64,000 bases of DNA from Schmidtea polychroa (taxonomy: Eukaryota): the NCBI GenBank assembly GCA_044892525.1, contig CM097885.1, forward strand, positions 9,054,001-9,118,000. Reading direction: 5' to 3'. Of the stretch, positions 32,028 through 32,298 are shown piece by piece (position 1 is the stretch's first letter; the number at the start of each line of letters is the position of its first letter). A program made the translations under genes and the position numbers. Below the pieces are notes generated by a model, which had not been told where the DNA came from, did no database searches, and saw nothing but the letters and a program-made list of their open reading frames with translations.

Positions 32028-32298
32028 CGGACCTCTTTCGGATTCGCTTTCGAATTCATTTGTACTTTCGAGCAGCACACTTAAAACGCCGATGAAATCG
32101 TATTCGAGCGAGAAGCGAATAATAAGGTGTGCTGCTATTATCGAATTGATTCTGATTATGAGCCTGGCCAGCTTGTATATTGGAAGAGATTTGATAAACG
32201 AAAGAGGTTGAATAAAAAAAAATGATCCGGATCAAAAAAACTGTTGAGAGGACAGTGAAAAAAAAAAATACCACTGTCCTCTCAGAGCAGTTTTACTA

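Follow-up and report, generated by a model that had tools for sequence, protein, structure and literature searches.

A predicted + strand RNA fold beside the right terminal repeat of a Schmidtea polychroa Polinton: a candidate viral Pol III noncoding RNA with no known family

What is encoded in the gap that separates a 73-aa open reading frame (ORF) from the inner boundary of the right repeat in an integrated Polinton/adintovirus-type element? The element is ~14 kb long and lies within the 64,000 nt of DNA from Schmidtea polychroa, an AT-rich eukaryote, that were analyzed here (the window). The gap is occupied by a block (32028-32294) in which there is no ATG-started ORF of at least 70 aa. A sequence-only reading had described this block as highly structured and noncoding, and had offered two accounts of it: an RNA read through from the second of two upstream Pol III units, organized like a tRNA-miRNA cassette, or a single-stranded DNA signal for replication or packaging.

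The element itself is assigned by its genes. Pfam matches comprise pPolB, adenain, a pX-like domain, an A32 ATPase, a PLA2-like domain together with an rve integrase, and a double-jelly-roll capsid protein; for a minor capsid protein, no Pfam match was found in the element. The presence of pPolB, an rve integrase, an FtsK-type ATPase, adenain, a double-jelly-roll capsid, and terminal inverted repeats identifies a Polinton/adintovirus, and section 3.1 of PMC8502044 gives these same genes as the defining set. The pPolB of this copy is broken into three ORFs. The integrase carries a fused PLA2-like domain (28652-30064), an arrangement widespread among homologues, and an ORF of its own (27317-27847) encodes the pX-like domain, unlike the linkage of PLA2 to pX given in the sections of PMC8502044 used here. 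A 120-nt segment at the start of the integrase gene (29921-30040) also folds well on the - strand (z of -7.2; 12 shuffles).

This Polinton sits within another element's pPolB gene, the halves of which lie at 15995-18501 and 32406-33844. The flanking ORFs correspond, colinearly, to residues 1-107 and 110-197 of a 935-aa pPolB ORF (40184-42991), and no clean target-site duplication was seen around the nested element. Its left repeat opens with a 273-nt self-inverted unit (18446-18718) with the terminal motif at both ends of the unit, and the right end carries a cut-down version of ~90 nt. Elsewhere, the window contains a giant palindrome (39862-50883) with 5,079-nt arms that are 100% complementary and separated by an 864-nt spacer, each arm bearing a 935-aa pPolB ORF and additional 1,081-nt arms lying outside; a second large palindrome (55608-64000; 2,764-nt arms, 99%; spacer of 1,421 nt); and a satellite (4100-11000) with a 30- to 31-nt repeat and a higher-order period of 775 nt.

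Folding against shuffled controls indicates that the block is structured well beyond its composition. The + strand of 32020-32300 reaches -96.5 kcal/mol (z of -8.56), with none of 200 shuffles as good, which bears out the structure claimed from the letters alone; the - strand reaches -75.5 kcal/mol (z of -5.72). When the last hairpin is excluded, the core (32028-32212) has z scores of -5.14 on the + strand and -3.22 on the - strand, and 0 of 300 shuffles matched either. A scan of 233 segments of 120 nt over the element (12 shuffles each) found 18 beyond a z of -2.5 on either strand, three of which fall in the block, and the segments at 32081 and 32141 are structured on the + strand only (-3.4 and -3.7, versus +0.8 and +1.8 on the - strand). 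A coarser scan of 89 segments of 185 nt, each with 8 shuffles, placed the core (z of -3.3) second to a segment at 50001 (-3.6), and the energy of the core was the lowest among the ten segments listed of the 89. The fold signal is therefore strong, yet not unique in the window.

The predicted + strand fold consists of a core closed by helix P1, an A-rich linker containing a palindrome, and a 3' hairpin, P5 (Table 1). Within the core, a short hairpin (pair probability of 0.86) accompanies helix P3 and the 24-bp hairpin P4 (32138-32197). P4 was absent from the sequence-only reading; it has a 2x2 loop, a one-base bulge, and a terminal loop containing the self-complementary hexamer TGGCCA, and it is joined into the multibranch core through 1-nt linkers. 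Many CpG dinucleotides and purine linkers are found in the core. Three stems that the sequence-only reading had listed (32031-40/32199-208, 32071-80/32127-36, and 32245-57/32272-84) are exact reverse complements with every coordinate correct, the palindrome at 32223-34 is perfect, and the AAAACTG/CAGTTTT extension of the last stem is present at 32237/32288. The motif TCCGGA occurs three times in the window, in the block palindrome and in both end repeats. P5, with arms of 21 to 23 nt, folds on both strands, and T runs follow it on both. P4 is rich in G-U pairs and stable on the + strand only, which suggests that the block belongs to an RNA with the same orientation as the promoter and not to a DNA element. 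In our judgment, the folding results very probably reflect a real RNA structure on the + strand.

Table 1. Predicted and annotated features of the element and of the folded block (positions in the window)
Feature	Position	Strand	Basis
Polinton/adintovirus-type element carrying the folded block	18446..32472	.	Pfam genes, end repeats
Major capsid protein gene, 430 aa	30082..31374	-	PF21738, E 9.6e-26; 43 homologues
73-aa ORF, without family, differs among copies	31461..31682	+	ORF list, Pfam
Pol III-type unit 1	31702..31785	+	A box 31710-20, B box 31753-62, T9 run at 31777
Pol III-type unit 2 head, not a tRNA cloverleaf	31950..32012	+	A box 31959-69, B box 32002-11
T4 run, possible leaky Pol III stop	32024..32027	+	between B box and core
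Core domain closed by helix P1 (32030-40/32199-209, 11 bp)	32030..32209	+	pair probability 0.91; core z -5.14
Possible crossing helix 32042-52/32109-20, 11 bp, one bulge	32042..32120	+	11/11 Watson-Crick, duplex -10.6 kcal/mol
Helix P3 (32071-82/32125-36, 12 bp), 42-nt weakly structured loop	32071..32136	+	pair probability 0.95; z -3.46
Hairpin P4, 60 nt, 24 bp including 6 G-U	32138..32197	+	pair probability 0.97; z -4.50 (+), 0.03 (-)
AATAAA, A9 run, 12-nt palindrome (32223-34), A7 run	32211..32240	+	sequence inspection
Hairpin P5 (upper stem 14 bp, lower stem 9 bp; loop A-rich)	32237..32294	+	z -8.42
T4, T5, and T6 runs, probable terminator for Pol III	32291..32315	+	starts 32291, 32299, 32310
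Right terminal inverted repeat, shorter than left	32300..32472	.	32300-80 vs 18810-729 93%; 32398-470 vs 18518-447 84%

A sequence-only proposal had also paired both halves of a longer stem across the core, as a pseudoknot or switch. The complementarity is real, and the register proposed earlier has a duplex energy of -12.3 kcal/mol, but shuffled segments are not clearly beaten: 199 of 2,000 were as good as the crossing duplex, which is not significant. Both this register and the 11-bp register in Table 1 exclude the local hairpins 32040-57 and 32101-21, and five of the crossing pairs exist because those two hairpins have one stem sequence in common. With the crossing strands kept open, the remainder folds to -54.8 kcal/mol, to which the duplex adds -10.6, versus -63.9 for the nested optimum (pseudoknot penalties excluded); crossed and nested states are therefore nearly equal before such penalties. 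Copy differences at 32101-05 break two of six pairs of hairpin 32101-21 and one of six in the second half of the register proposed earlier. The 11-bp register is untouched among the differences listed (40 of 111) and is thus slightly favored. A pseudoknot in the core is a possible outcome of these models.

If the block is an RNA, a candidate promoter is available just upstream. A pattern for A and B boxes, which follows the consensus quoted in the portion of PMC12498455 used here and was composed after the sites had been seen, matches twice in 64 kb (31710-62 and 31959-32011), both times on the + strand, and not once in 100 shuffles. Each unit spans 53 nt from the start of the A box to the end of the B box, a tRNA-like spacing, and in both the boxes are separated as in type 2 Pol III promoters (30 to 60 nt). 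The B box of unit 2 departs from GGTTC at its third letter. Unit 1 folds no better than its shuffles (z of +0.9). The head of unit 2 is predicted to form a closing stem (31950-57/31995-32002) and a hairpin (31956-64/31976-84), a fold that differs from a cloverleaf; ARAGORN called no tRNA gene in the 64-kb window, and Rfam gave no tRNA match for this head, either at gathering or to an E value of 10. The CTTTCG hexamer occurs four times in 31987-32070 (near 31988, 32035, 32047, and 32065), which gives the 3' strand of P1 other possible pairing sites. A candidate splice acceptor at 32019-20 was discarded because the letters there differ in X8 and X10, two of the sequencing runs described below.

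These observations divide the transcriptional part of the sequence-only reading. An RNA read through from unit 2 agrees with the A and B boxes, the + strand fold, and the terminal T5 and T6 runs; standing in its way is the T4 run at 32024-27, although read-through of T4 by Pol III is reported in general terms in the sections of PMC8223928 used here. This remains the best-supported part of that reading as judged from promoter, fold, and terminator. The comparison to a tRNA-miRNA cassette is not borne out so far: the head lacks a tRNA call, and the hairpins have 23 to 24 bp. We consider it more likely than not that the block is transcribed by Pol III from unit 2.

Contigs from sequencing runs offer a further, weak hint. 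The ratio of contig depth between X8 and X10 is 6.7 to 22.8 at six places in the block, 1.4 to 1.7 at four places in the capsid gene and the 73-aa ORF, and 0.7 in unit 1; none of 24 listed runs is on record as RNA, and that X8 derives from RNA is a guess. In X19, which bears a different organism label, comes from a different study, and is likewise RNA only by guess, depth peaks at 32020-32223. The deeper X8 and X19 contigs over the core are a weak hint of expression, since contig depth can neither rank parts of a gene nor give strand, ends, or level and the runs were preselected for the stretch. Over 31920-32011, X10 has a contig and X8 none, and the deep X8 contigs begin at ~32012; this gap is not usable as a 5' end.

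Other copies of the block were compared in contigs of four runs (X7, X8, X10, and X19) out of 24, the runs having been picked for containing the stretch; of 111 differences, 31 indels, and 128 loose ends, the comparison covers 40, 12, and 24, respectively. One position of the head hairpin is paired in X10 and in most of the X7 depth and mismatched in the window. In P4, the bulged base is faced by a one-base insertion in X19 and X7. One X19 contig has five differences in the 5' arm of P5; four of them keep or extend pairing with the 3' arm of the window (one through a G-U wobble), and one breaks a pair. Substitutions within the core, among those listed, are all in the P3 loop. In the 73-aa ORF, the X8 and X10 contigs have 25 differing letters across 280 nt. 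No two-sided compensatory change was found among the differences (40 of 111) and indels (12 of 31) listed, and the copy differences are therefore a matter of compatibility with the fold and not of covariation. Those listed appear mostly to preserve or lengthen helices, which suggests continuing selection on the block.

The copies also indicate how the block spreads. Records that run on into unlike sequence make up 0 to 1% in X7, X8, and X10 and 27% in X19, and X10 depth is 206 over the block versus 215 to 222 over the capsid gene. The low run-on and equal X10 depth indicate that the block travels with the element, unlike a dispersed SINE; a tRNA-derived SINE would be expected as dispersed copies with varied flanks and target-site duplications, a pattern that three of the four runs do not show. 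Judged from its contigs, X19 contains more diverged relatives. In X7, both Pol III-type units (31714-31866 and 31918-32070) are far deeper than most bins of the capsid gene, and joints connect the two units, a hint that this organism has shortened or tandem derivatives.

Beyond these copies, the block was not found. No related locus was present in the viral contigs or prokaryote genomes searched. Metagenomes contained 33 related Polinton loci, with capsid identity of at most 53%, and blastn gave no match longer than 24 nt between the block and these loci, many of which are on contigs too short for the matching region. The A/B unit was absent from all 37 loci examined, a covariance model built from the one sequence matched only itself over the related loci, 17 of the 33 loci had no Rfam match at gathering and no ARAGORN call, and neither two exact-motif scans nor blastn against phages gave any match. 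A P3 pattern in four viral loci was set aside as chance, the loops and flanks being unrelated. One distant locus has a strongly folding segment upstream of its capsid gene (L012:39-158; z of -8.8 and -6.3; 8 shuffles), which bears no likeness to the 32028-32294 block.

Rfam offers no identity for the block: over the whole window there were no matches at gathering and 22 weak ones to an E value of 10, all below gathering. U3 snoRNA, the SRP Alu domain, spliced-leader RNA, telomerase RNA, ITS2, and the twister and pistol ribozymes were each dropped because their motifs or Rfam support were lacking. Hammerhead and HDV-like ribozymes were rejected after a motif scan and Rfam, as their core motifs were missing in the right topology. 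The core could nonetheless be a new kind of catalytic or nuclease-resistant RNA, a self-cleaving ribozyme or exonuclease block that yields a stable 200-nt product. Its compactness, the crossing helix of similar energy (-54.8 plus -10.6 versus -63.9), and its CpG and purine linkers would suit such an RNA. However, no hammerhead core (CTGANGA) occurs on either strand, a relaxed match at 32089 is without a fitting stem II (by eye), no HDV-type loop is found on the + strand, no ribozyme was matched by Rfam to an E value of 10, and the crossing helix is not significant against shuffles. We regard this reading as very improbable.

Three further explanations draw on the same features. P4, P5, or both might be cut to ~22-nt miRNAs or siRNAs against host or element mRNAs, as from a TMER- or BLV-like precursor. 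The promoter head, the two ~60-nt hairpins, and the U run do have the TMER layout, as the part of PMC4378190 used here describes it. The length of the P5 arms is also fitting, and the top sub-threshold Rfam matches are miRNA models on P5, but these matches are far under gathering (24.8 versus 211) and no arm match longer than 13 nt occurs elsewhere in the window. Drosha prefers stems of roughly 35 bp, longer than those of P4 and P5; P4 is held in the multibranch core by its short linkers, and, because the head is not a tRNA, the RNase Z step of TMER maturation has no evident substrate. Small-RNA production is thus an unlikely function for the block as a whole. That it is instead a useless passenger captured from the host, whether a tRNA-headed SINE with an A tail, a piece of structured host RNA, or an rDNA spacer, appears quite unlikely. 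The tRNA-type head, the body, and the AATAAA with its A run do resemble a SINE, the block is absent from distant relatives, contig depth in X7 is much greater over the two heads than over most bins of the capsid gene, and in X19 unlike sequence follows in 27% of the records. Against capture stand the nearly complete lack of dispersed flanks in X7, X8, and X10 and the X10 depth equal to that of the capsid gene, together with the lack of a target-site duplication around the unit (by eye), the lack of an Rfam family match, and the copy differences that keep the structure and suggest ongoing selection.

A DNA-level module at the end of the element is the remaining explanation, and one to which we give very little weight. 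The A and B boxes would act as a TFIIIC insulator, the palindrome as a protein site, and P5 with its A and T runs in stopping, replication, or packaging; in the first of these roles, it would halt transcription from an inward-facing promoter in the repeat. The block adjoins the right repeat, TCCGGA in the window is confined to the two repeat palindromes and that of the block, and P5 folds on both strands with T runs after it. This account leaves the G-U-rich, + strand-only P4 and the nested core unexplained, however, and the left end, which would need an origin as well, has no copy. Polinton replication origins lie in the terminal repeats, thus at both ends, and here the repeat homology ends at 32300/18810; absence of the block from the left repeat therefore makes it an unlikely replication origin. 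For the same reasons (a position outside the inverted repeat, no left-end partner, and the instability of P4 on the other strand), the single-stranded DNA replication or packaging signal of the sequence-only reading is not supported. The palindrome and P5 alone may still have a role at the DNA level.

The reading that we prefer is an RNA encoded by the element. A and B boxes with tRNA-like spacing are seen just upstream on the + strand, and T5 and T6 runs end the unit. Host TFIIIC and Pol III would start at ~31950, pass the T4 run at 32024 at least sometimes, and stop at ~32294-32303; the product would be up to ~350 nt long. This RNA is computed to fold into a small head, a 180-nt core, and a 3' hairpin, an arrangement partly backed by the copy differences, and the core would comprise the closing helix, a junction with a possible pseudoknot, and the long G-U-rich hairpin. 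By analogy, abundant copies of this dsRNA-like transcript might occupy Dicer or the host sensors of dsRNA, a decoy role that would protect the element, and the 3' hairpin P5 may be diced as well. The precedent is provided by VA RNAs, which the sections of PMC7589676 used here describe as abundant Pol III RNAs with a terminal stem, a pseudoknotted central domain, and an apical stem that act as Dicer decoys. We put the chance that the block is an element-encoded Pol III RNA of this sort, a VA/EBER-like decoy or Dicer substrate, slightly short of even, and the decoy role overall is proposed tentatively. A general statement, that Polintons/adintoviruses make their own abundant Pol III RNAs, here with a pseudoknot-capable fold of 200 to 350 nt that counters RNA-based host defense, is rather doubtful; if true, adenovirus VA RNA would have a counterpart, perhaps even a forerunner in kind, on the invertebrate side, and the high copy number of these elements would have one explanation.

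Viral Pol III RNAs are few and mostly come from adenoviruses, gammaherpesviruses, and retroviruses, according to the part of PMC4378190 used here. RNA genes of known classes have been found in polinton-like viruses and virophages with Rfam and ARAGORN (PMC12220804 and PMC6905037, in the parts used here); neither tool finds this block. Among the titles and abstract openings searched, there was no report of a Pol III-driven structured RNA specific to Polintons and no article linking polinton with VA RNA.

Several known systems resemble the candidate in part; the likenesses concern a predicted structure, and the sources are cited for the sections used here. As with VA RNA I and II (PMC7589676 and PMC4378190), two adjacent type 2 Pol III units lie in a virus-like element with adenovirus-like genes, and a closing stem, a junction with a possible pseudoknot, a long imperfect hairpin, and a U-run end are predicted. 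However, VA RNA is ~160 nt long and the candidate ~350 nt; box A of VA RNA is in the terminal stem and box B in the apical stem (PMC7589676), whereas both are here in a separate head; and the GGGU-ACCC stem is in the central domain of VA RNA, whereas GGGT at 31951 and ACCC at 31998 here close the head. Membership in the VA family was rejected, as there is no Rfam match at gathering and VA is not among the 22 matches to an E value of 10. The paired EBER1 and EBER2 of EBV (PMC4378190) are likewise structured viral Pol III RNAs with several stem-loops, although they are unrelated in sequence and virus group and no Rfam match links them to the block.

The TMERs of MHV68 (PMC4378190 and PMC8223928) resemble the candidate in having the promoter in a 5' head, followed by two hairpins of ~60 nt and a terminator in the form of a U run. 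Their head is a tRNA cloverleaf cut by RNase Z, whereas the head here is not a cloverleaf, and the first hairpin is here built into a 180-nt multibranch core. Membership among TMERs was rejected for want of a cloverleaf (no ARAGORN call and no Rfam tRNA). The Pol III pre-miRNAs of BLV and foamy viruses (PMC12498455 and PMC4378190) likewise come from integrated elements with type 2 signals, and their hairpin stops at a U run, although in BLV the A box is in the hairpin and the B box past the terminator, whereas both boxes precede the hairpins here. The block is thus best described, from its sequence signals, as a candidate viral Pol III noncoding RNA with no known family, of a kind that is itself known. 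If the RNA is made, it would give a testable answer to how widespread Polintons cope with host RNA silencing, as well as a new RNA fold and, from a related virus group, a point of comparison for how VA RNA arose. By analogy, the candidate may act like VA RNA or EBER in a TMER-like layout, yet it belongs to neither the VA nor the TMER family.
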